Source of the DNA: an uncultured archaeon
Lineage (GTDB): Archaea; Asgardarchaeota; Lokiarchaeia; Sigyniarchaeales; SOKP01
Length of the DNA stretch: 64,000 nucleotides
Direction of reading: 5' to 3'
Assembly (NCBI GenBank): GCA_964632315.1
Contig: CAZWEM010000002.1
Coordinates: 64,001 to 128,000, forward strand
Position 1 is the first letter of the stretch; each line of letters begins with the position of its first letter. A program made the translations under genes and the position numbers. Below the pieces are notes generated by a model. That model worked only from the letters and a program-made list of their open reading frames with translations. It was not told where the DNA came from and searched no databases. Below, piece by piece: positions 421 through 18,237 of the stretch.

Positions 421-1341
421 TTAGAACTCGTAGCCACATTTCTTACAAACGTGCTTTTTGGCATACATCGGAATGTGACCAACATAAGAGAGCACTTTAG
501 ACTTATCTTCAGTTTGTTTAATGTCATGTCCAACAGCGCCACACATGGGACAGGTCACTCTCTCGTCGGCAGCAAAACCTCCCGCTCCAATTTCAGGAGG
601 CTTTAATTCACTCAACTCTGTTTCAGTTTCTTCAATTCGTGCAGTCTGAGCTTCAATAAGTTTTTCTTTATCACCAATTTCCCCAGATAATTCGCCTATT
701 TGTGCCTCTTTTTGGGTTAATTGGTTATTTAACTCCTCTAATTTATTCTTGAGTTCTTGATTTTCTGCTTGGGATGCATCTAACTTACTATTAACATCTT
801 GAAGTTGTAAATTAAGCTGATTAAGCATGTCTTGGCTCTCTTCATTAGAGCCTTGAACATCTCCGAGCTTTTGTTTCAATGAATCTATCTCAGAATTCAG
901 ATTACCAACCATTTCTTTCGAGGCAGATAATTCTCCTTCCTTATGTTGTAATTTTGATTCCAATTCAGTTGTTTTATTGTTGGCAGATTCTAATTTACTT
1001 GTTAATTCATCCACTTGCGAGCTAAGGCTGTTTATTGTTTGTTCTGCTTTTTCAATCGCAGAACCACTGGCTGATTTAAGTTGCTCTAATTCTTTTACTT
1101 TTACTTTTGTATTCTCCACTTCTTGTTTTGACGAATTAAGCTGATTTGTAGTAGTCATTAATTCCTGACTTGTTTTTTTAAGGTTATCTTGGACTTGGGT
1201 CAGTTCCTTCTTGTTTTCACTTAATTGTTGCTCTAAATCATTCACTTTGGCCCTTAAGTCAAGAAGAAACCTTCCTTCAACCTTTTGGCTCTTTTCCGGT
1301 TTACTTTCAGCTAACGCCCAGTCTATACTAATTTTACTCAC
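421..1341 (-). CDS. Long coiled-coil protein with C-terminal zinc ribbon
   Basis: About 210 aa of heptad-like E/K/Q/L sequence followed by CPMC...CKKCGYEF; GTG start (ATT at 1332 is an alternative). Confidence 0.8.
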   Translation of the reverse strand: MSKISIDWALAESKPEKSQKVEGRFLLDLRAKVNDLEQQLSENKKELTQVQDNLKKTSQELMTTTNQLNSSKQEVENTKVKVKELEQLKSASGSAIEKAEQTINSLSSQVDELTSKLESANNKTTELESKLQHKEGELSASKEMVGNLNSEIDSLKQKLGDVQGSNEESQDMLNQLNLQLQDVNSKLDASQAENQELKNKLEELNNQLTQKEAQIGELSGEIGDKEKLIEAQTARIEETETELSELKPPEIGAGGFAADERVTCPMCGAVGHDIKQTEDKSKVLSYVGHIPMYAKKHVCKKCGYEF

Positions 1342-5515: not shown

Positions 5516-6457
5516 ATTACGTTTACGAAAAAAGTAGCATTTCTGGGTCTTGATAATGCAGGAAAGACGTCAATTATAACAGTAATTACAAAAAGATTCG
5601 GATTTGAAGAGGAGGTTTTGAATCTACTCCCAACTAGGAAAATAGCCAGAGATGCATTTAAATTCTTAGGGATAGAATTTATTAGGATGGATTTTGGTGG
5701 CCAATCACAGTATAGAGAAGAATACTTAAAGAATCCGACAAAATACATCTCAGGTACTGATCTAATTTTCTATGTTATAGACGTTCAAGATTTTGATAGG
5801 TATGTTGAAACCATAGATTATTTAGATAAAATACTTATATATCTTAAAGAAGAGCAAGAATATCCCCCATTAGCAATTTTATTACATAAATTTGACCCTC
5901 AACTTGTAAAAGACAAGGAAATAAATAGCAGGGCATTAACGATAAAGCAAGCTTTGACCAGGTATAGTAATGACTTTGATATTTTTTTCTTTGAAACGTC
6001 TATTTATGATGTTAAATCAGTAATGGACACTTTTTCAAGCGGATTATCATTATTATTTGATAAAATAGAAATTGTTTCTCAATTATTAGCAGAAATAAGT
6101 AAAAACTACGATACCCTCCTTATTGCATTATTTGATTCAATGGGTATTACGATCGGAGAATATTATCGACCTCACATGCAATTAAAAGAAAAAATGCGCA
6201 TATATGATAAGTATTTAGATGTACAGAAAAGAATTATGGCAGAAAATAAAAAGTTATATGAATTCTCTGATAAATTCGATAATGGAGAGCGATATTCTGG
6301 ACTTATTGAAGTTTTATCATATGGAGAATTGGAATTTTACTTACTTTTTGTCATTGAAGAAGATCCAGAAAACTTGGGACAAACTGTAGAAATTCTGAAT
6401 AAGATTGAATCTGCTAGACCTCAGATGGAAAACATCATTTTCCAGATAATTCAATGA
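5516..6457 (+). CDS. Small GTPase (Arf/Rag-like) with C-terminal roadblock/longin-like domain; non-canonical start
   Basis: G1 GLDNAGKT lies in frame upstream of the called TTG (5618); G2 LPT, G3 DFGGQ, G4 HKFD, G5 ETSI; in-frame stop at 5513. Confidence 0.9.
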   Translation: MTFTKKVAFLGLDNAGKTSIITVITKRFGFEEEVLNLLPTRKIARDAFKFLGIEFIRMDFGGQSQYREEYLKNPTKYISGTDLIFYVIDVQDFDRYVETIDYLDKILIYLKEEQEYPPLAILLHKFDPQLVKDKEINSRALTIKQALTRYSNDFDIFFFETSIYDVKSVMDTFSSGLSLLFDKIEIVSQLLAEISKNYDTLLIALFDSMGITIGEYYRPHMQLKEKMRIYDKYLDVQKRIMAENKKLYEFSDKFDNGERYSGLIEVLSYGELEFYLLFVIEEDPENLGQTVEILNKIESARPQMENIIFQIIQ

Positions 6458-9036: not shown

Positions 9037-12000
9037 ATGATACAAAAAAAATTAAGTCAAAAACAACGCAAATTATTGGGTTTAACAACTCTTTTTGTCG
9101 TATTAAACATTCCCTTGCTATTAGGAATTTTTCCTTTAACAAGTCAGGACGTTGTTTCAAAACAAACTGAAGATAATGATGAAACATTGAATGTAAATGA
9201 TGTTGGATATGATTTATGGTGGAATACAAACTTTGAATATCGAAGTCTGATAAACATCACTAATCCCTATAATGAAGCATTTGATGATTTCGTCACTAAG
9301 ATTTCATTCAACTATACTACATATGTCACTATGGGTAAAATGAACGATAGTTTGAAAGACGTTAGAATAGTTCAAAATGGAATAGTAAAAGAATATTATA
9401 TTCAAAAAGATTTTCCTAACGAAGATATTGCAACAGTTTGGTTTAAAGTCAATGTAAGTGCCGGTCCTATAGTACAACAAGATACCTACATGTACTATGG
9501 TAATAACTCTATAGGGTTTGATGCAAAACTAATGGCTAAAAATCCAGATGGGTTAATTTGGTACAATTGCGAAGAAGGTTCGGGAAATATTTTAATTGAT
9601 AGCATGGGGAACTACAATGCCACTATTCATGCAGTTGGTGCTGATTTGTGGGATTCATCTGATCCTGCGATTGGAGCCTATTCTTTAACTTTTACAAATA
9701 ATGATTATATTGCCATACAAGATCTTTATTTTGAAGGTAGGAATACAATAGATGCACTTACAGTAATGGTATGGTTTAAGACAGCAGCATCCTCCTCTTC
9801 ATATACGGATAATTGGGCATTTTTCGATTTTGATCGTTCTGAAACATTTAATTTCTTCATTACACCAGGAACTGGAGGGAATCCAACGACTCCTTGTACA
9901 GAAGGAAGTATTGGTTTTGGAACATCCGCTCAAGGCTCTTCACCTGTCACTTCTGACTTTTTTAGTAATACGGATCATTTAAATGATGGAAGATGGCATT
10001 TTGCAGCTGCTAGCTACGATGGACTGGATAAAAGAATCTACATTAATGATTCTTTAGATAATACAGATCTCAATGCTCATGCAGGGCTAGCTTTAGGAAG
10101 AGATACGACTCGTTATGGATTCGTTGGTGATGGTTCTGAAGCATCTACTTTTGATGGAAATCGAAATGGCTTTTATTATACAGGAAGTTTAGATGAAGTT
10201 CGTTTTTTCGAACAATCTTTGGACGCGAACAGAATAGAACAGATATATAATGGTTATGAATTAGCGACTACATTGAACGAGGAACAAATACGATTTGCAC
10301 AAATAAGCGTCATAGCTAAGGATGTAGATGGTCGTATAGTACCAAACGTTGAAGTGACTCTTTACAATGAAACTGGCCCATTTTTAACTCAAACTACTGA
10401 TTCTAGAGGATTAGTGGAATTTATTGAAGTCCCTTTTGGAGATTATAATATGACAGCTAATTTTACATCTTCTCTCGGGGTGGAAAAAATGGTATTTAAT
10501 AGCAGTGAAATTGGAAAAGAATACTCCTTTAACGGACTAATATATAAGGTCTATATCGAATTAGATATTTGGGCGATTGATTTTCAAGTGGAAGATTGGA
10601 ATGGAGATCCAATGGATCAAGGTTTTATCGAAATATGGGATACTGATTCGAAAAACACATTGATTGATAACTTAACAATCAATCCTGATACAGGTTTACA
10701 GACTTTTAGATGGCTTAATACATCATCATATTACTATGAAATTTACTATAATAATCCTGATTATACTCCTCAGATAACTAAAATGAACAGTAGTACCATC
10801 TTACGCTCGAATTACGTTAATAACTTTAAAACCTTCACAAGAACTATAAATATAAATGAATCCGCGACTGAATATGTTGCACCATATTTTGGATTAAATG
10901 AGAACTATTACACGAGTGATTCTAATTCGACTGAGATTGGAAACACAAAAATTATCGATGCCACGTTCCAATTAGACAAAATGTTAGAGAGATTACATGA
11001 GATATATATTTACACGATTTCCAATAAGTACGATCCTACGTTTTATGATCCAAATGAGATATTTTATAAAAATTATGTCACTGAGACTTCTGATATCATT
11101 AACATTAATGTTACTGAAGCTACTGATGCTTTTGGATTGAGAATGGAATTATCATGGCTAAATACTTCAGCAAATTGTAATGGTACCGTTAATATTACAT
11201 ACACTCAAACATGCAATCAATTTATAAAACTCAACATGTCAAAATTAGAGATTAGAGTATTCGATTATACAGGAATTCCCGATCCTATTCAATATATCAT
11301 CGTGGAGGTTCGAAACAATTCTACAAAGGATTTAATAACGAGCCTTATTACTGATCCTGATGGAATCGCCACGGGTCAAACTTTAGGAGGTTATGGTTTT
11401 TGGTATTTGAATGACGTCTATGAATTTTCGCTGGAATTTTATGGTACACCAAATCGACCATTTAATGTTACCTATTCAGATCAGTGGGTAAAAGGAGATT
11501 TTGTTACTTCGTATAACTACACACTAAGTAAGGCATCTCTTCTGGAATTTGAAATGAATATCAATTTAGATAACTTCTTATCCGAGTTTAGAAATCAAAC
11601 TTGGGACACATCCACTGATTGGGGAGACAATATGAGCTTTGAAGTCAATTATACGATTTCAAGTGACGGAGGAAATAGCTGGAGCGCGATTTCGAGCCCG
11701 GATTATGCAATCTATAAAGTAAGAAAAGTTGGATTCAGTTCCATCTTGCTTAGCGGAGATATGGATGATCAAGGTAATGGAAATTATTCAATCACACTTA
11801 ATTCTGGTTCATTGACTGCAGGATTATCTTATACTTTAAGTGTATATGGGAGTAAAATTGGCTATATTGATCCTGATCCTGCTATAATGAGTTTCCAGGT
11901 AAATAGTGTTCCTACTAGTCTTACTTTCTATAATTACTCAAATCCAACACAAAGTATAACTTCTATATCTCAATACTATGGAGAATCAATGAATGTTTCT

Positions 12001-14595
12001 ATATTGTATAATAATAGTAATACAGATAATCCACTGTTGGGTGCTACTCTTAATTTTAATTGGGATTACGGTTCTGGTTCAATCATGAGCGATACGCGTA
12101 CTGGCTATGAAGAGTATTATGTTTTACAGATAGATACCACTTCATCACCTAATACGGGATTGTTTAAGTTCAAAGTTTCAGCGGAATTAGAGAATTATAC
12201 ATCACAAGTGAATGTGAATTTCGATGTATTCATACTTGATCGTCCCACCTTAATTAATGGAACAAGTCAAGTATTATACATTAGCGAAAATGTATATGCG
12301 CTTGATTCACAAACTTTCATATTCAATTATACTGATACAAACTCAGATAGCTTGATTGACAGTGCTAATGACGTTAATTACTTCTGGCAGAAATTAGATG
12401 AATTAGGTAATCCTATAATTGGCGAGACAGATTCCGGAGTATTAACTGAACTACCTAGCAACCTTTATCTTCTAAGTATTGGAACTGACGTTATGGAAGT
12501 AGGGGATTATTTTGTATACGTAACACTTCAAAAATTTAACTATGAAGACAGAGCAGCAATAATATCCTTATCAATTTTAGAACGTCCAACAAGATTAAAT
12601 GGCAGCTTGTCACTTCCTACAGTTTTTAAAAGTATAGACCAATTTGAGTCTTTTAATTTTACATTCACTTACACTGATTCATTAACATCTCAATCAATTA
12701 CTGATCTTGACATACAATCGTATAATTATAGCAGTGATGCTGAATCTTCTTCTGGTAATATTCCTCTTGGATATGATTCGAACAAAAAAATTTATTATCT
12801 TGATGGATTTGATACATCTACAAAGCCAAATGGCACGTATATTATAGATGTCTTTTTTGGGAAGCAGAATTACTCTAGTCAAACTGTGAGAATTAATTTA
12901 GTGATTAATTTTGTAATCAGTGATTATAATTCATCATTAAATCTAATTTCCAAAAGCCCACTTGATTTTTCTAATGATATTTACTGGAGAGATGAGGTAA
13001 CCGTTACATTCAATTTCACTACCAGTGATCCAACAAATGGAACTATTTTAAGTGACCCAGATTCTTTATACTTACAATTCCTTTATGATTCCCTTAATCC
13101 AATTGGAACTCAGATTAATTTACTCGGTTACAAGATTGCAACAGGAATTTATTCATACACCTTTAACACATCAGCATTTAATTTTGTTGGGGGTTATTCC
13201 TATTACATTAGCATTAAAGGTGGAAAATCTCCATATACTGCACCTCATGAGCTTCAGATATTATTCAAGGTACAATCTATTTTAACTCAACTTACAGTGC
13301 ATAATTATACAACTAATAACGAATATTCTCCATATGTAATTAATACATATTGGAATCAGCAATTCAATATTACGATTAGATATTCTGAAATTGCAACTGG
13401 TTGGAATATTGAGGGAGCTACAGTTAGTTTCAGTTGGTTCTTCGGATCTGGAGTAATTCAACCTGATTCTGTCAAGGGAAATGGATATTATACTTTTTTA
13501 TTTGATACGGGCAACGCTACTGAAACTTCCGTATATAATATCCAGTTAATAGCGACAAAGCAAAACTTTACAGACGGATTACCATACACCACTTTTCAAA
13601 TTAATATTATGGATAGGCCTACTGAATTAAACTCAACGGGTAATGTTTTCTATGTCAATGAAAAAATATACATACTTGATGTACATAACTTTACATTTAG
13701 ATACATTGATGTCTTAAGTTCCTCACCGATTTCTAATGCTGATGAATTAAGTTATATTCTTCAGAAGTTAGATTCAAATGGATACCCAATCTCAGGGGAA
13801 ACTTTTACTGGCTCTTTAATTGAAAATTCTCAGAATTATTATGTACTTGATTTAGACACGGAATCACTATCAAGTGGAGAATATTCCATCTTGATTACAT
13901 TACGCAAGGATAATTATGAATATCGAACTTCTGTTATGACTTTAACCGTACAAAAACGAGTATTTTCAATACAAATGAGCATCGATAATGAAATAGAAAT
14001 TGACGCAGCAAAATCTTTGCAATTCCAAGTAACTTTAACTGATCCGAATAATAGTTCAGCTACGGTTTCTGGAGCGGAAGTATACTTAATGATTGGTGGA
14101 ACCAGATACGATGCAAACGAAATAGATGATGGAGTATATCAATTCGATATTCCTGCCCTGGCGGATCCATTCTTTGTACCTGAATTCTTCAGGCTTGAAT
14201 TACACATTGAAAAGACAAATTTCCTTAATGAACAGAATACAATTACACTCAATGTAAAGATGAATGAAATCTTTCCGGGGGTTCCAACATTTTATTTCAT
14301 ACTGATTGTGGTTGGTGTGGCTGCTGTTGTAGGTTCACTTGTAGCATATCGAGCAATCCAACAAGCAAGAATTCCAAAGTTTGTTAAGAGGACAAGAGCG
14401 ATGAAAAAAGAGATAAAAGGACGCAAATCGATATCAGATAGTCTATTGTATCCAAGTAAAGAGGAATATATCCTAAAAGAACAAGGAGATAAATGGGACA
14501 TGATAGGTTTATCACTAGGAAGTATTTTAGGAATTGACACGAAAAGAAAGAAAACTATGCCAAAAACTCCTGAAAATGAGGGAGGTGTTGATTAA
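9037..14595 (+). CDS. Giant cell-surface protein: N-terminal signal/TM, DUF2341-like + LamG/ConA-like domain, tandem Ig-like repeats, C-terminal TM and basic cytoplasmic tail
   Basis: WWNTNFEYRSLINITN...DVRIV...VWFKV...YMYYGN; TVMVWFKT...DGRWHFAAASYDG...YTGSLDEVRFF; many N-x-S/T sequons; TM FYFILIVVGVAAVVGSLVAY. Confidence 0.85.
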   Translation: MIQKKLSQKQRKLLGLTTLFVVLNIPLLLGIFPLTSQDVVSKQTEDNDETLNVNDVGYDLWWNTNFEYRSLINITNPYNEAFDDFVTKISFNYTTYVTMGKMNDSLKDVRIVQNGIVKEYYIQKDFPNEDIATVWFKVNVSAGPIVQQDTYMYYGNNSIGFDAKLMAKNPDGLIWYNCEEGSGNILIDSMGNYNATIHAVGADLWDSSDPAIGAYSLTFTNNDYIAIQDLYFEGRNTIDALTVMVWFKTAASSSSYTDNWAFFDFDRSETFNFFITPGTGGNPTTPCTEGSIGFGTSAQGSSPVTSDFFSNTDHLNDGRWHFAAASYDGLDKRIYINDSLDNTDLNAHAGLALGRDTTRYGFVGDGSEASTFDGNRNGFYYTGSLDEVRFFEQSLDANRIEQIYNGYELATTLNEEQIRFAQISVIAKDVDGRIVPNVEVTLYNETGPFLTQTTDSRGLVEFIEVPFGDYNMTANFTSSLGVEKMVFNSSEIGKEYSFNGLIYKVYIELDIWAIDFQVEDWNGDPMDQGFIEIWDTDSKNTLIDNLTINPDTGLQTFRWLNTSSYYYEIYYNNPDYTPQITKMNSSTILRSNYVNNFKTFTRTININESATEYVAPYFGLNENYYTSDSNSTEIGNTKIIDATFQLDKMLERLHEIYIYTISNKYDPTFYDPNEIFYKNYVTETSDIININVTEATDAFGLRMELSWLNTSANCNGTVNITYTQTCNQFIKLNMSKLEIRVFDYTGIPDPIQYIIVEVRNNSTKDLITSLITDPDGIATGQTLGGYGFWYLNDVYEFSLEFYGTPNRPFNVTYSDQWVKGDFVTSYNYTLSKASLLEFEMNINLDNFLSEFRNQTWDTSTDWGDNMSFEVNYTISSDGGNSWSAISSPDYAIYKVRKVGFSSILLSGDMDDQGNGNYSITLNSGSLTAGLSYTLSVYGSKIGYIDPDPAIMSFQVNSVPTSLTFYNYSNPTQSITSISQYYGESMNVSILYNNSNTDNPLLGATLNFNWDYGSGSIMSDTRTGYEEYYVLQIDTTSSPNTGLFKFKVSAELENYTSQVNVNFDVFILDRPTLINGTSQVLYISENVYALDSQTFIFNYTDTNSDSLIDSANDVNYFWQKLDELGNPIIGETDSGVLTELPSNLYLLSIGTDVMEVGDYFVYVTLQKFNYEDRAAIISLSILERPTRLNGSLSLPTVFKSIDQFESFNFTFTYTDSLTSQSITDLDIQSYNYSSDAESSSGNIPLGYDSNKKIYYLDGFDTSTKPNGTYIIDVFFGKQNYSSQTVRINLVINFVISDYNSSLNLISKSPLDFSNDIYWRDEVTVTFNFTTSDPTNGTILSDPDSLYLQFLYDSLNPIGTQINLLGYKIATGIYSYTFNTSAFNFVGGYSYYISIKGGKSPYTAPHELQILFKVQSILTQLTVHNYTTNNEYSPYVINTYWNQQFNITIRYSEIATGWNIEGATVSFSWFFGSGVIQPDSVKGNGYYTFLFDTGNATETSVYNIQLIATKQNFTDGLPYTTFQINIMDRPTELNSTGNVFYVNEKIYILDVHNFTFRYIDVLSSSPISNADELSYILQKLDSNGYPISGETFTGSLIENSQNYYVLDLDTESLSSGEYSILITLRKDNYEYRTSVMTLTVQKRVFSIQMSIDNEIEIDAAKSLQFQVTLTDPNNSSATVSGAEVYLMIGGTRYDANEIDDGVYQFDIPALADPFFVPEFFRLELHIEKTNFLNEQNTITLNVKMNEIFPGVPTFYFILIVVGVAAVVGSLVAYRAIQQARIPKFVKRTRAMKKEIKGRKSISDSLLYPSKEEYILKEQGDKWDMIGLSLGSILGIDTKRKKTMPKTPENEGGVD

Positions 14596-14596
14596 A

Positions 14597-15706
14597 ATGC
14601 CAGTTGGATTAGTTGTGATGAAATGGGATGAAAGAGTCGGTACTGAAATACTAGCAAAATATCCAGAAGAGATAATTGTTACCGATAAAACTCTAATGCA
14701 GGTCTATAGTACACATGAATATAGTGGTGACTCCGGTATGATCAGTTTAATGGTTGGATCATTAAATATTGCTTCATACTATACCGGACCTGAAAAAGGA
14801 TATTATGTTCTACTATTATTAAACCTTGACGACGACCCAGATTCATATGAGGGAGGTTTGATTGATGTTTCTAGGATCATTCTGCAGAATTTGGAGGAGG
14901 AAGCTTATCTAAGCATGATACCTTCACTCTTCCAGAGATTGTCTATCTATCCCACCCTCAATGACGAACAAAGAATTGCGATAACTTACCAAGATGAAAT
15001 CAAGAGAATGATAATTAGCAGGTTGAGAGAAGAAGGTGTTGTTTCAAAATCAGAATTAATGGTGTGGTTGAAAGATAAGTATAAACAAGGTTTCGTCGAT
15101 TTAGAAGGAGTCTTGACTGAATTAATTAAACGAGAACTTGTGAAGGAAGCATCTGTAAAAGGAATGCCGTCTGAGTTGATCTTTCTCACTCATGATATTA
15201 TGATGTTAAGGACACCTCCAGTTCAGCTTTTAAAAGATCCCGCAGATCGAGGGTTACCTGCTCAATTAGCTGAGGATTATCGAGTAGAAGTCAAAAAGTT
15301 CTTTCAGAATTATAAACCATCGGAACAAGATAATTTAAGAGTAATAGATATCATTGTAAATCCTCAAGTATATGAAACTTTGAAATTACTTAGAAATGCT
15401 ATTGTCACTAAAAATGATCTTGAAAAACTCAAGAAAAAAGGAGTAGAAGATATTGATGACGTACTTAAAATGCTCTGGGAAAGCCAAATGATCCAAGTAT
15501 TTCAAGATGATTCTAACAATGAATATTACGCTTTATTATCTGATTTTTACGTCAATTTGATCTTTCCAAAATACTTATTGAACATAATTAAGGCAGAGTA
15601 CGAAAAAAAGTCGAAAGCAGAGCAAGTTTTAGTTGAATATCTTAATGTTTTAGAAGATACTTATTTAGAATCTAAATCAGTAACCAAAGTAAAAGCAAAA
15701 GAATAA
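14597..15706 (+). CDS. uDENN/longin-like N-terminal domain protein with helical/winged-helix C-terminus
   Basis: GLVVMKWDERVGTEILAKYP resembles the uDENN FD..xGP.l...YP start; ATG at 14597 after GGAGGTG, 1 nt after the upstream stop. Confidence 0.6.
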   Translation: MPVGLVVMKWDERVGTEILAKYPEEIIVTDKTLMQVYSTHEYSGDSGMISLMVGSLNIASYYTGPEKGYYVLLLLNLDDDPDSYEGGLIDVSRIILQNLEEEAYLSMIPSLFQRLSIYPTLNDEQRIAITYQDEIKRMIISRLREEGVVSKSELMVWLKDKYKQGFVDLEGVLTELIKRELVKEASVKGMPSELIFLTHDIMMLRTPPVQLLKDPADRGLPAQLAEDYRVEVKKFFQNYKPSEQDNLRVIDIIVNPQVYETLKLLRNAIVTKNDLEKLKKKGVEDIDDVLKMLWESQMIQVFQDDSNNEYYALLSDFYVNLIFPKYLLNIIKAEYEKKSKAEQVLVEYLNVLEDTYLESKSVTKVKAKE

Positions 15707-15743: not shown

Positions 15744-16730
15744 TTAATGTGGATTTGAAGCTATTCCTATAAGCAAACCTTGATGTTCAAAGATATCAAT
15801 ATTATTTAATCCGTTTTTATTCATCTCTAAATATAATTCATCATATGTATAAATACGGTTGATAAGTGCTGCTTTATATAACTTAATCAACTCATTGATA
15901 AAGATATTATCTGTCATTTGAAAATCTGCAACAGCAACAAGAATAATATATCCTTTAGGTTTGGTTACCCTTACAACTTCCTTTAAGATCTCATTTCTTG
16001 TCATTTCATAAAACTTTGGAGTTTTTTTATATACTGGTATAAAAGTGGCATCGAAAAAATTTTCTCTTTCTCGAAAAAGACCCCCTACAATTTCACTGTA
16101 ACGATACTTCCCCTTATTTATAGCAGATTTCGATTGGTTAATTTCATTTTTTGAAAGGATATAAATCTCGTTGCTAAATGATGAGATTTGATTTAGAATT
16201 GACAGTGGGACAAATTCAGATAACCAAATAGATAATACTCTATTAAAATTTTGAGTTCCAACTTTATCTAAAAATTTTTTGAAGAAATTTTCACGATATT
16301 CAGTTGATTCCATAACGTTATTATTTATAAGGAATTTAAGCAATAATTTTGGTATGAAATTAGTGTAATTAGTAGGATTTACTGCGACTTTTCCAGTTGT
16401 ACCATTATAAGTTAGTAACCCTCGTTTTTCAAGTTTGTCAAGGCTATAATAGAATTTTCCGGTTGACAATTTTTTAGGCACAGTAATAAATTCTTGAAAT
16501 TTAAGGGATTGAGGATTATCTTCAAGTTCTACTGGAGATTTACGCTCTCTAAACTCAATAAATTGCTTAACTTCAGTGAATAAAACGTGTCTCACCACTG
16601 GTTCTGAATATCGAGCTAAAAATTGTAAGATGATGATTTCTGCAATTGATAAATCAGCAAAATCCGAGATTGTATGATAAAGCGCATATTGATAATAATC
16701 ATCTTTATTTTCCAAATAAAGGCATCTCAA
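15744..16730 (-). CDS. Putative transcription regulator: winged HTH fused to a methyltransferase-like C-terminal domain
   Basis: LSTGKFYYSLDKLEKRGLL (wHTH recognition helix); FFDA...ILKEVVRVTKPKGYIIL (class I MTase C-terminal motif) without a clear GxGxG. Confidence 0.55.
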   Translation of the reverse strand: MRCLYLENKDDYYQYALYHTISDFADLSIAEIIILQFLARYSEPVVRHVLFTEVKQFIEFRERKSPVELEDNPQSLKFQEFITVPKKLSTGKFYYSLDKLEKRGLLTYNGTTGKVAVNPTNYTNFIPKLLLKFLINNNVMESTEYRENFFKKFLDKVGTQNFNRVLSIWLSEFVPLSILNQISSFSNEIYILSKNEINQSKSAINKGKYRYSEIVGGLFRERENFFDATFIPVYKKTPKFYEMTRNEILKEVVRVTKPKGYIILVAVADFQMTDNIFINELIKLYKAALINRIYTYDELYLEMNKNGLNNIDIFEHQGLLIGIASNPH

Positions 16731-16875
16731 TTTTTCAAATCTCTATAAATTAGGTATAAAACGCTTACCATTTAAGTTTTTCTAAAATCAGAGAAAAAAA
16801 TCTCTAATTTAATCGGGAAATTTATAAATTCTTGTTCATTAATGAATCCACCAATAAAAATTAAACGTGATCACA

Positions 16876-18237
16876 TTGGAAGGAAAAATTCCAAAAGAAT
16901 TTGATGAAATTGATATGGAAAATCTGTCAAAGCCTAATGCTTTACCTGAAGACATTGATTATGAGAACCATATCATTGGTACTTATACCGCAATGCTCCA
17001 CAGAAAAATGGATGCATTCTATATGATGCAAGCGGTTTGTGTAGAGCAATCCACGGGAACATTTGTCCCTGTCCCAGCAGAAACTCCAGAAACAAGAAGA
17101 AAACATGTTGCTAAGGTTATCGGATGGTGGAGATTTCCTGATTTTGAATATGAAGGTGCTGAAGATTTTTTCGGTAGTCCAAAGATGTATCAGTACGTCG
17201 TACAAATTGCATATCCCTTGAATTTCAAACCACAATTCCCCATGTTATTCACTACAATCTATGGGAACATTTCAATGGGAGGACCTCTTAAATTAGTAGA
17301 TGTTAGATTTCCAAAAGCGTTCTTAAAAGATTTTAAAGGACCAAAATTTGGAGATGTGGGAATCCGAAAAATCTTGGGAGTAAAAGAGCGACCATTATTA
17401 AATAATATGATCAAACCTTGTGTTTATACAGATCCAAAAGTAGGGGCAGAATTAGCTTATAAAGCTGCTGTTGGAGGATGTGATGTTATAAAAGACGATG
17501 AGTTAATCGCTGACGTTGAATTTAACCCGATCACAGAGAGAGTTACGGCTTTTATGGAAGCATTAGATAAAGCGGATTCAGAAAAAGGTGAAAAAACTCT
17601 ATATACTGTAAACATAACGGATAGGGTAGACAGAATGTTTGAGCTAGCTGATATAGTTCAAGAACATGGTGCGAATGCAATAATGGTCAATCACATCTCA
17701 GTAGGATATTCTGCCTTACGAAAATTAGCGGAAGATCCTTCTGTAAAAGTACCAATTTTAGGGCACATGGATTTCGCTGGAACATTATATCAAGATCCTG
17801 TGAGTGGTGTTTCTAGTCCTTTAGTACTTGGTAAATTTGGGCGATTAGCAGGGTGTGATTTCATAGTTCACCCGGCTCCATACGGAAAGGCTCCAACTAC
17901 TGCAGATAGATTCAAAGAAACTGCTAGACAAATGGTGATGCCAATGCGAAATGCCCCACATATCAAGAGAACAATGCCAATGCCAAGTGGAGGTATTACA
18001 CAGAGTCTTGTTGAAAAATGTGTTGCTGATTTAGGGACTAACATAATGATTGGAAGTGGTGGAGCTATTCATGCTCATCCAGATGGACCTATTGCAGGAG
18101 CAAAATCATTTAGACAAGCAATTGACGCTGTAATGCAAGGAATTCCAGCTAGAGAATATGCAAAGGATCATAAAGAATTAGCAGTTGCCTTAGGTTTGTT
18201 CGGAGTTGGAAAGAAAACAGAATTTACTTCTGTCTAA
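16876..18237 (+). CDS. RuBisCO-like protein (form IV RLP)
   Basis: EQSTGT, GNISMGG, FKGPKFG, GGCDVIKDDE, MPSGG, GGAIHAHPDG; IKPCV in place of KPKLG, and the His-Arg motif is HM. Confidence 0.9.
   Translation: MEGKIPKEFDEIDMENLSKPNALPEDIDYENHIIGTYTAMLHRKMDAFYMMQAVCVEQSTGTFVPVPAETPETRRKHVAKVIGWWRFPDFEYEGAEDFFGSPKMYQYVVQIAYPLNFKPQFPMLFTTIYGNISMGGPLKLVDVRFPKAFLKDFKGPKFGDVGIRKILGVKERPLLNNMIKPCVYTDPKVGAELAYKAAVGGCDVIKDDELIADVEFNPITERVTAFMEALDKADSEKGEKTLYTVNITDRVDRMFELADIVQEHGANAIMVNHISVGYSALRKLAEDPSVKVPILGHMDFAGTLYQDPVSGVSSPLVLGKFGRLAGCDFIVHPAPYGKAPTTADRFKETARQMVMPMRNAPHIKRTMPMPSGGITQSLVEKCVADLGTNIMIGSGGAIHAHPDGPIAGAKSFRQAIDAVMQGIPAREYAKDHKELAVALGLFGVGKKTEFTSV

Follow-up and report, generated by a model that had tools for sequence, protein, structure and literature searches.

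What joins a giant, sequon-rich surface protein of an Asgard archaeon to a small cytoplasmic protein encoded immediately downstream, and what might the two do together at the membrane? The question is raised by two adjacent genes, here termed A and B, in a stretch of 64,000 nucleotides (the window; contig C2, positions 64001 to 128000) from an Asgard genome of 4.45 Mb with ~31% G+C; close homologues of gene B carry the labels Lokiarchaeota or Promethearchaeota. A first-pass annotation of the DNA had proposed that the products are a receptor and its adaptor, linking extracellular contact to the regulation of small GTPases. We find that the two genes belong together, to the point of being fused in paralogues, and that B consists of a longin domain followed by winged helices. 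The best reading of the locus, to which we give slightly better than even chances, is a receptor in two pieces, one of which would keep the other, a regulator of a small GTPase, at the membrane; that B has such an activity is conjecture.

9037 to 14595, plus strand: gene A, a type I-like surface protein of 1852 amino acids (aa) with a signal or anchor segment, a LamG and immunoglobulin (Ig)-like ectodomain, one transmembrane (TM) helix and a conserved tail (open reading frame, or ORF, scan)
14597 to 15706, plus strand: gene B, an acidic cytoplasmic protein of 369 aa with a longin domain, two winged helices and a C-terminal helix (AlphaFold2 model)

Gene A runs from an ATG at 9037 to a TAA at 14593-14595 (ORF scan and translation) and gene B from an ATG at 14597 to a stop codon at 15704-15706, leaving the single base 14596 between them, as the first-pass annotation had reported. 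Its description of A as a single-pass protein of ~1850 aa with a sequon-rich ectodomain and a basic tail of ~80 aa was accurate, since the ORF scan and translation, hydropathy, sequon count and Pfam agree.

Genes A and B form one unit

All related loci examined keep the pairing. A giant protein with the same C-terminal end is encoded immediately before B in L008 (which holds two such pairs), in L009 and in both copies carried by a single-contig genome of the same order, and 29 of 29 further species loci of the same family have the end of a tail-coding sequence just ahead of B; the A orthologues found upstream of B elsewhere are 1380 to 2602 aa long. In paralogues the two are a single chain: P0123 (2090 aa), P0128 and P0125 run from ectodomain through TM helix, tail and linker into B, and open frames of 2100 to 3009 aa that end in a B domain occur in genomes G210 (five in tandem), G204, G132, G243 and G291. 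The fused protein at L044 (2678 aa) has TM helices at 19 and 2199, and DUF2341 and LamG each match it strongly three times. The synteny together with these natural fusions rules out that A and B are neighbors by chance. Conservation of the pair across Asgard genomes, which the first-pass annotation had proposed as a check, was found only within the window's own order; in the other Asgard families sampled, B orthologues do not lie next to a giant protein.

B itself is widespread: of 301 genomes sampled across the phylum, 201 have it, among them 67 of 68 from its own family and all 7 from the sister family. Its homologues fall into more than 120 clusters at 78-100% identity (90% clustering), with 354 matches among 50% representatives. 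Across orthologues of the pair, identity grades from ~80% in B through ~60% in the tail to ~32% in the ectodomain. The genome under study also encodes four full-length, distant B paralogues (22-32% identity; C5:126706-127959, C9:283-1548, C40:43573-44649 and C20:56731-57891), and shorter proteins on C73, C18, C6 and C3 that resemble either the longin part or the winged-helix part of B only.

Two variants of the arrangement were noted in other genomes. In G210 (C9:430358-464784, of which L044 covers 446500-456500), five fused ectodomain-TM-tail-B genes encoding ~2655-2678 aa each stand in tandem, two of them with one in-frame TAA within the B match, and the array looks like an expanding, diversifying receptor family. 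At L028 (2598-3029, minus strand; G065, contig C6), a "mini-A" of 143 aa lies directly upstream of B and joins the signal or anchor segment straight to the TM helix and conserved tail, with an Arf-like GTPase gene adjoining this mini-A/B pair in divergent orientation; mini-A may truly have lost its ectodomain, or the assembly may have collapsed at this point.

The tail of A is predicted to dock on B

14347 to 14592, plus strand: basic cytoplasmic tail of gene A, 82 aa from Y1771, with the pattern YR.IQ.ARIP.FVKK ... ISDSLLYPSKEE ... GDKW..LGLSL..ILG
14581 to 14587, plus strand: Shine-Dalgarno-like GGAGGTG for gene B, 9 nucleotides before its ATG and within the last codons of A

The tail (80-82 aa) contains 19 K/R and 11 D/E residues, giving a net charge of +8 (+10 in its first 30 residues) and an isoelectric point (pI) of 9.9, and it is single copy, as a search of its own genome found no further copies. 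It is conserved whether A and B are split or fused, with residues I9, P10, K14, I23 and W50 invariant in an alignment of 30 tails. At the C terminus of A, the codons of the nearly invariant ..EGG.. (14581-14592) also hold GGAGG, the ribosome-binding site of gene B; since the GG column, nearly invariant in split forms, is lost in fused A-B forms, this conservation probably operates at the RNA level. A promoter and terminator scan relied on bacterial models and was uninformative, as the host is an archaeon.

Cofolding of the tail with B gave ipSAE values of 0.77, 0.77 and 0.76, against 0.00 for the best of three controls; the runs had at least 97% of contacts in common, with a partner pLDDT of 75-76. 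In calibration, 58 of 80 solved complexes and 2 of 110 mismatched pairs attained this ipSAE mark, counts that apply only roughly to this case because custom alignments were used. In the modelled interface, whose contacts start ten residues past the membrane, tail residues 10-61 meet B residues 200-241 and 318-360, and the longin domain is left free. The interface contains tail residues P10, I23 and W50 and B residues R205, P207, F236, Y239, P324 and L352, which are the most conserved residues of both partners, and the charges of tail (+8) and B (-16) are complementary. These models support binding of the tail to B. The controlled cofold accordingly strengthens the earlier idea of a receptor paired with a cytoplasmic adaptor, as far as a model can, but the adaptor is not a DENN protein.

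B combines a longin domain with tandem winged helices

14597 to 14956, plus strand: longin domain of B, residues 1-120, strand-strand-helix-strand-strand-strand-helix (model, pLDDT ~90)
14957 to 15562, plus strand: tandem winged helices of B, namely, WH1 (residues 121-206), a linker helix (207-242) and WH2 (243-322) (models of whole B and of its C-terminal half)
15563 to 15703, plus strand: C-terminal helices of B, residues 323-369, which with residues 200-241 make up the predicted tail-binding face

The AlphaFold2 model of B, computed from a 58-sequence alignment, has a pLDDT of 93.1 and a pTM of 0.87, and the C-terminal half modelled alone reaches a pLDDT of 95.8, residues 121-369 forming two winged helices and further helices. 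The longin fold suspected from the first-pass annotation is confident in the model and in structural matches. A uDENN-like start had also been proposed, and the pattern behind it (a hydrophobic strand, W10-D11-x-R-x-G15 and Y22-P23) is real and conserved in the family, but it is part of the longin fold and the rest of the protein is not DENN; since B has neither a DENN nor a dDENN domain, the label fits the longin start only. Conservation in the longin domain centers on the hairpin W10-D11-x-R13-x-G15 and on P23, H40, S60 and G64, and among 58 family members W10 is kept in 53, D11 in 46, R or K at position 13 in 39, G15 in 54 and P23 in 57; beyond the longin domain, R205, P207, F236, Y239, P324 and L352 are near invariant. 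B is strongly acidic (net charge, -16; pI 4.8), with net charges of -1 in WH1 and -6 in WH2 (pI 4.4).

Neither Pfam nor NCBIfam assigns B to a family, and a language-model atlas search returned unnamed Asgard clusters only. A Foldseek search of the PDB with B placed chains from GATOR1 entries, 362-461 residues long, at the top (E values of 1.8e-4 to 1e-3, probabilities of 0.90-0.99 and 330-366 aligned columns), although whole-chain TM-scores to these chains are only 0.2-0.27; judged by their length, the chains are presumably NPRL2 or NPRL3 and not DEPDC5. The best match of B residues 1-120 is again a GATOR1 chain, 8fw5_B (Z score, 12.0; root-mean-square deviation, 2.8; 118 residues aligned; VIA-align), with many other longins at Z scores of 10-11, and atlas clusters named NPRL2 also match the model. 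The C-terminal half of B retrieves generic ArsR/MarR-type winged helices (Z scores of 9-10) and, weakly, tandem winged-helix proteins (Nse, ESCRT-II and Stn1). In the published description of NPRL2 and NPRL3, at least two winged helix-turn-helix repeats come after a longin domain (PMC3747258). With a longin domain at residues 1-120 and WH1 and WH2 in both models, B shares this architecture and appears to be built like NPRL2/NPRL3, a kinship that sequence searches do not support.

Gene order in other lineages points to an Arf-like GTPase

Outside the window's order, 13 loci from five families were compared, and in 9 of them a GTPase gene adjoins, and often overlaps, the B orthologue; in family f9 a B-then-GTPase operon is present in 28 of 30 species loci, the other two ending at contig edges, although these counts overstate independence because the genomes are related. 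The neighboring GTPase is ~285-345 aa long, with an extension of 115-135 aa before the GTPase domain that has no Pfam match and is longin-like only by sequence pattern and a weak atlas match (TM-score, 0.33). Its GTPase domain is matched best by the Pfam Arf model PF00025 (E values of 8.6e-24 at L042, 1.9e-23 at L043 and 8.3e-23 for the copy on contig C34 of the genome under study); because Roc and Ras models also match, its subfamily is not settled. For each of the B orthologues from these other families, the window's B is the clear best match in its own genome, at 107-241 bits except for L055 (71 bits); with the GTPase-adjacent orthologues, the paralogues score at most 68. In L008 and in L028, a GTPase gene of this family is flanked by two A-B pairs. 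We infer from this gene order in other lineages that B and the GTPase are partners, and it is mainly this three-way association that suggests that B works on a GTPase.

The orthologous GTPase of the genome under study (L056:7388-9604, plus strand; G000:C34:19387-21603) is 739-742 aa long; its N-terminal extension and GTPase domain are followed by a proline-rich stretch of low complexity (~300 aa) and, at the C terminus, by a coiled coil. An ORF of 164 aa just upstream (L056:6869-7360, plus strand) has a roadblock/MglB-like look and no Pfam match.

The window holds another GTPase gene, of the Gtr1/RagA type (5516-6457, plus strand; Pfam E value, 6.6e-19), ~3 kb upstream of the A-B pair. Its P loop, GLDNAGKT, lies upstream of the first ATG, GTG or TTG (5618) in a frame that is open from 5516, so that the gene probably starts at a noncanonical codon and automatic calls would lose the G1 motif. 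An orthologue of 311 aa stands at the same relative place in L009. We did not adopt this Rag-like protein as the partner of B, as three unrelated genes on both strands lie between it and the pair.

Proposed mechanism and alternative explanations

We suggest that A and B would form one membrane-spanning unit, encoded by two genes here and by one in the fused paralogues, in which A would display a variable, glycosylatable LamG/Ig ectodomain outside the cell while its basic tail would wrap the face of B formed by WH2 and the C-terminal helix. Docking of the tail would pin B to the inner face of the membrane and leave the longin domain free, and this domain, with its conserved WD..G hairpin, could act as a platform for, or a regulator (GTPase-activating protein [GAP] or guanine nucleotide exchange factor [GEF]) of, an Arf-like GTPase that carries an N-terminal extension of its own and is here encoded on another contig, C34. 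Catalytic activity of B and ligand-dependent switching are conjecture. A fuller version, in which contact of the ectodomain with a partner cell or polymer changes the tail-B complex, switches B as a GAP or GEF of the Arf-like GTPase and remodels membrane or cytoskeleton locally, and in which the B family is the archaeal stock of the eukaryotic GAP longins (NPRL2/3, FLCN and C9orf72/SMCR8), is speculative, and we consider it improbable as a whole.

Several observations weigh against B as a GTPase regulator of the NPRL2/NPRL3 kind docked on A. The earlier tie between B and small GTPases gains support in other Asgard families, where B orthologues overlap the Arf-like gene, but not at home: no GTPase gene linked to the A-B pair was found in the pair's own genome, the orthologue on C34 (59% identical to that of L008) being unlinked, and neither a giant protein nor a GTPase was found next to the B paralogues of this genome. 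The relatedness of the genomes behind the locus counts and the low whole-chain TM-scores count on the same side. B has no match to the Pfam families NPR2 (PF06218) or NPR3 (PF03666) at E values up to 1, nor do 58 longin domains of its family, and PDB sequences searched with a profile of the entire family, or of its longin part, yielded no NPRL2, FLCN, C9orf72 or DENN protein at E values up to 10. No GATOR1 chain is among the top 50 structural matches of the C-terminal half, where presence further down the ranking is possible. GAP longins typically have a GP motif, which in NPRL2/NPRL3 stands before strand 2 and goes with a catalytic arginine finger; only 6 of 58 B family members have its proline. 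The cofold, finally, expresses the confidence of a model rather than a measurement, and the fused forms show linkage and not the mode of docking.

Some of these points suit a purely structural explanation, in which A is an envelope or adhesion protein and B its cytoplasmic anchor or assembly factor, as a cytoskeletal tie or clustering scaffold, with no GTPase control in this lineage. Lokiarchaeia are described as having a single membrane that bears complex surface proteins but lacks an ordered S-layer (PMC9834061), a surface that such an anchor would fit; what the pair and the fused forms demonstrate is physical unity and not signaling, and longin and tandem winged-helix domains are general protein-binding modules. 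The operons of B orthologues with an Arf-like GTPase in several other families and the presence of that GTPase between A-B pairs in two Loki genomes are harder to accommodate, as is the position of the most conserved longin residues, which lie outside the predicted tail interface on the hairpin of strands 1 and 2, the GTPase-facing site of eukaryotic GAP longins (PMC12290439). We regard the structural anchor as an unlikely explanation, though one to be taken seriously.

The same winged helices could instead make B a membrane-tethered transcription regulator, sequestered by the tail and released, whole or as a proteolytic fragment, on a signal: WH2 matches the archaeal winged helix-turn-helix protein PH1932 (E value, 1.6e-4), and both domains superpose on DNA-binding ArsR/SmtB/MarR repressors at Z scores of 9-10. 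The acidity of B and of WH2 and the absence of basic residues from the helices at the recognition position (LEGVLTELIK and IDDVLKMLWE), which are acidic or hydrophobic, make this reading unlikely; moreover, the conserved C-terminal residues fall in the predicted tail interface and not on a DNA-facing surface, many paralogues have B permanently fused to 2000 aa of membrane protein, which fits a membrane-resident role, and the conserved GTPase neighbor points elsewhere. We rate it as very improbable. Least probable of all is that B is a uDENN/DENN-type GEF for a local GTPase such as the Rag-like protein, despite a longin fold with a uDENN-like first hairpin, a match to the DENND1A longin and the recurrence of the Rag-like gene upstream in L009. 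Residues 121-369 are winged helices in place of DENN and dDENN, the Rag-like gene is cut off from the pair and the neighborhood differs in L008, and the GTPase that recurs beside B orthologues belongs to the different, Arf-like family. The absence of the DENN core excludes membership of the DENN family, though the longin domain might have exchange activity. A split receptor with a tethered regulator of a small GTPase accounts best for the linkage, the conserved free hairpin and the recurring GTPase neighbor taken together.

The surface protein and other genes nearby

9073 to 9141, plus strand: N-terminal hydrophobic segment of A, residues 13-35, a signal peptide or anchor (Kyte-Doolittle window above 1.8)
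9355 to 10467, plus strand: DUF2341-like region (residues 107-159), Laminin_G_3/ConA-like lectin fold (220-400) and prealbumin-type Ig-like domain (423-477) of A (Pfam)
10474 to 14271, plus strand: sequon-rich stalk of A, beta-rich repeats, residues ~480-1745, fast evolving (sequence divergence)
14284 to 14352, plus strand: single C-terminal TM helix of A, residues ~1750-1772 (hydropathy up to 2.63)

A basic stretch, KKLSQKQRK, precedes the N-terminal hydrophobic segment, and the position of the TM helix is kept across A orthologues and fused forms. Laminin_G_3 (PF13385) matches residues 220-400 with an E value of 4.2e-8 and 33.9 bits against a curated cutoff of 27.6, placing this region within the fold by Pfam and making carbohydrate binding a candidate role only; the DUF2341 and prealbumin/CarboxypepD_reg-type Ig-like matches are weak, and both fall below the Pfam cutoff. 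The stalk repeats are, from their sequence, probably Ig-like; no DNA repeats were found within gene A, and self-comparison of the protein gave no internal repeat at an E value of 1e-3. Sequons (N-x-S/T) number 52 against 28.4 expected from composition, all within residues 73-1672 and none in the tail.

Downstream, a gene for a 328-aa protein that has no Pfam match (15744-16730, minus strand) is convergent with B and head to head with a gene resembling the RuBisCO large chain (16867-18237, plus strand). Near the start of the window, a 306-aa coiled-coil protein (421-1341, minus strand) scores just above the Pfam ATG16 cutoff (34.6 versus 33.7 bits) among 40 coiled-coil families, most likely an effect of composition. 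In genome G240, of a different order, a B orthologue adjoins a gene (L041:11709-13844, plus strand; contig C156) whose 712-aa product has a CHAT protease domain at its C terminus (E value, 1.8e-30) and a weak Snf7/ESCRT-III match at its N terminus (E value, 5e-4); also in G240, the giant ORF beside the B orthologue, which exceeds 3169 aa and has a ConA-like 3-keto-disaccharide-hydrolase domain, lies after B rather than before it.

Significance and comparison with known systems

To our knowledge, longin and roadblock proteins and small GTPases are numerous in Asgard archaea and their cellular roles are largely obscure. The conserved three-part assembly described here, composed of a surface protein, a longin and winged-helix protein predicted to dock on it and a recurring Arf-like GTPase, gives one of these eukaryote-like parts a testable membrane-spanning job. 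The contacts of tail, B and GTPase could be probed with one peptide, a pair of soluble proteins and some point mutations, and relatives of the host are in culture. If B does regulate the GTPase, the unit would show how a protrusion-rich surface without an S-layer is coupled to intracellular GTPase switches, a coupling central to models of the origin of the eukaryotic cell, and if the outside-in version were also true, receptor-controlled small-GTPase signaling at the membrane would be older than eukaryotes. If B has no such activity, the unit still marks a major Loki surface-protein family and its cytoplasmic anchor.

NPRL2 and NPRL3 (Npr2 and Npr3 in yeast) are subunits of GATOR1, a GAP for RagA/B. 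B is like them in its longin domain and winged helices and would likewise act at a membrane beside a small GTPase, but its recurring neighbor is Arf-like and not Rag-like, no DEPDC5 partner was seen for it, and it is fused with, or predicted to be docked to, a giant surface protein, which NPRL2 and NPRL3 are not. The C9orf72-SMCR8-WDR41 complex is an Arf/Rab GAP with longin domains. The hairpin W10-D11-x3-G15 of B has the spacing of residues W33-D34 and G38, reported as essential in C9orf72 (PMC12290439), and the candidate client of B is Arf-like, whereas C9orf72 continues into a DENN module and B into winged helices and the GP proline is mostly missing in B; the resemblance consists of a short motif and a common fold only. 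The Rab GEFs of the DENN-module type also begin with a longin domain and a similar first hairpin (DENND1A; Z score, 10.8, aligned over residues 1-120 only), but their DENN and dDENN domains are absent from B. The closest eukaryotic look-alikes of B are GAPs and not GEFs.

Within the Asgard archaea themselves, NPRL2-like proteins with a longin domain and an NPRL2-type C-terminal part have been reported by Liu et al. (bioRxiv 10.1101/2020.10.19.343400) and appear in lists of eukaryotic signature proteins (PMC9834061), and GAP-type longins were noted by Šimonová et al. (PMC12290439). B plausibly belongs among the longins of Liu et al., but the fusions described there are to two-component signaling domains, whereas those of the B family are to a surface protein. 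Nowhere in the accessible text of the literature searched did we see a giant protein paired with B, the conserved tail, the fusions or an operon of B with a GTPase. Thus, Asgard NPRL2-like longins were already known; the fusion of a longin of similar build with, and its predicted docking to, a surface receptor are new on the evidence of those texts, as are the tail-B cofold with its conserved interface, the recurrent operon with an Arf-like GTPase, the charge argument against DNA binding and mini-A.

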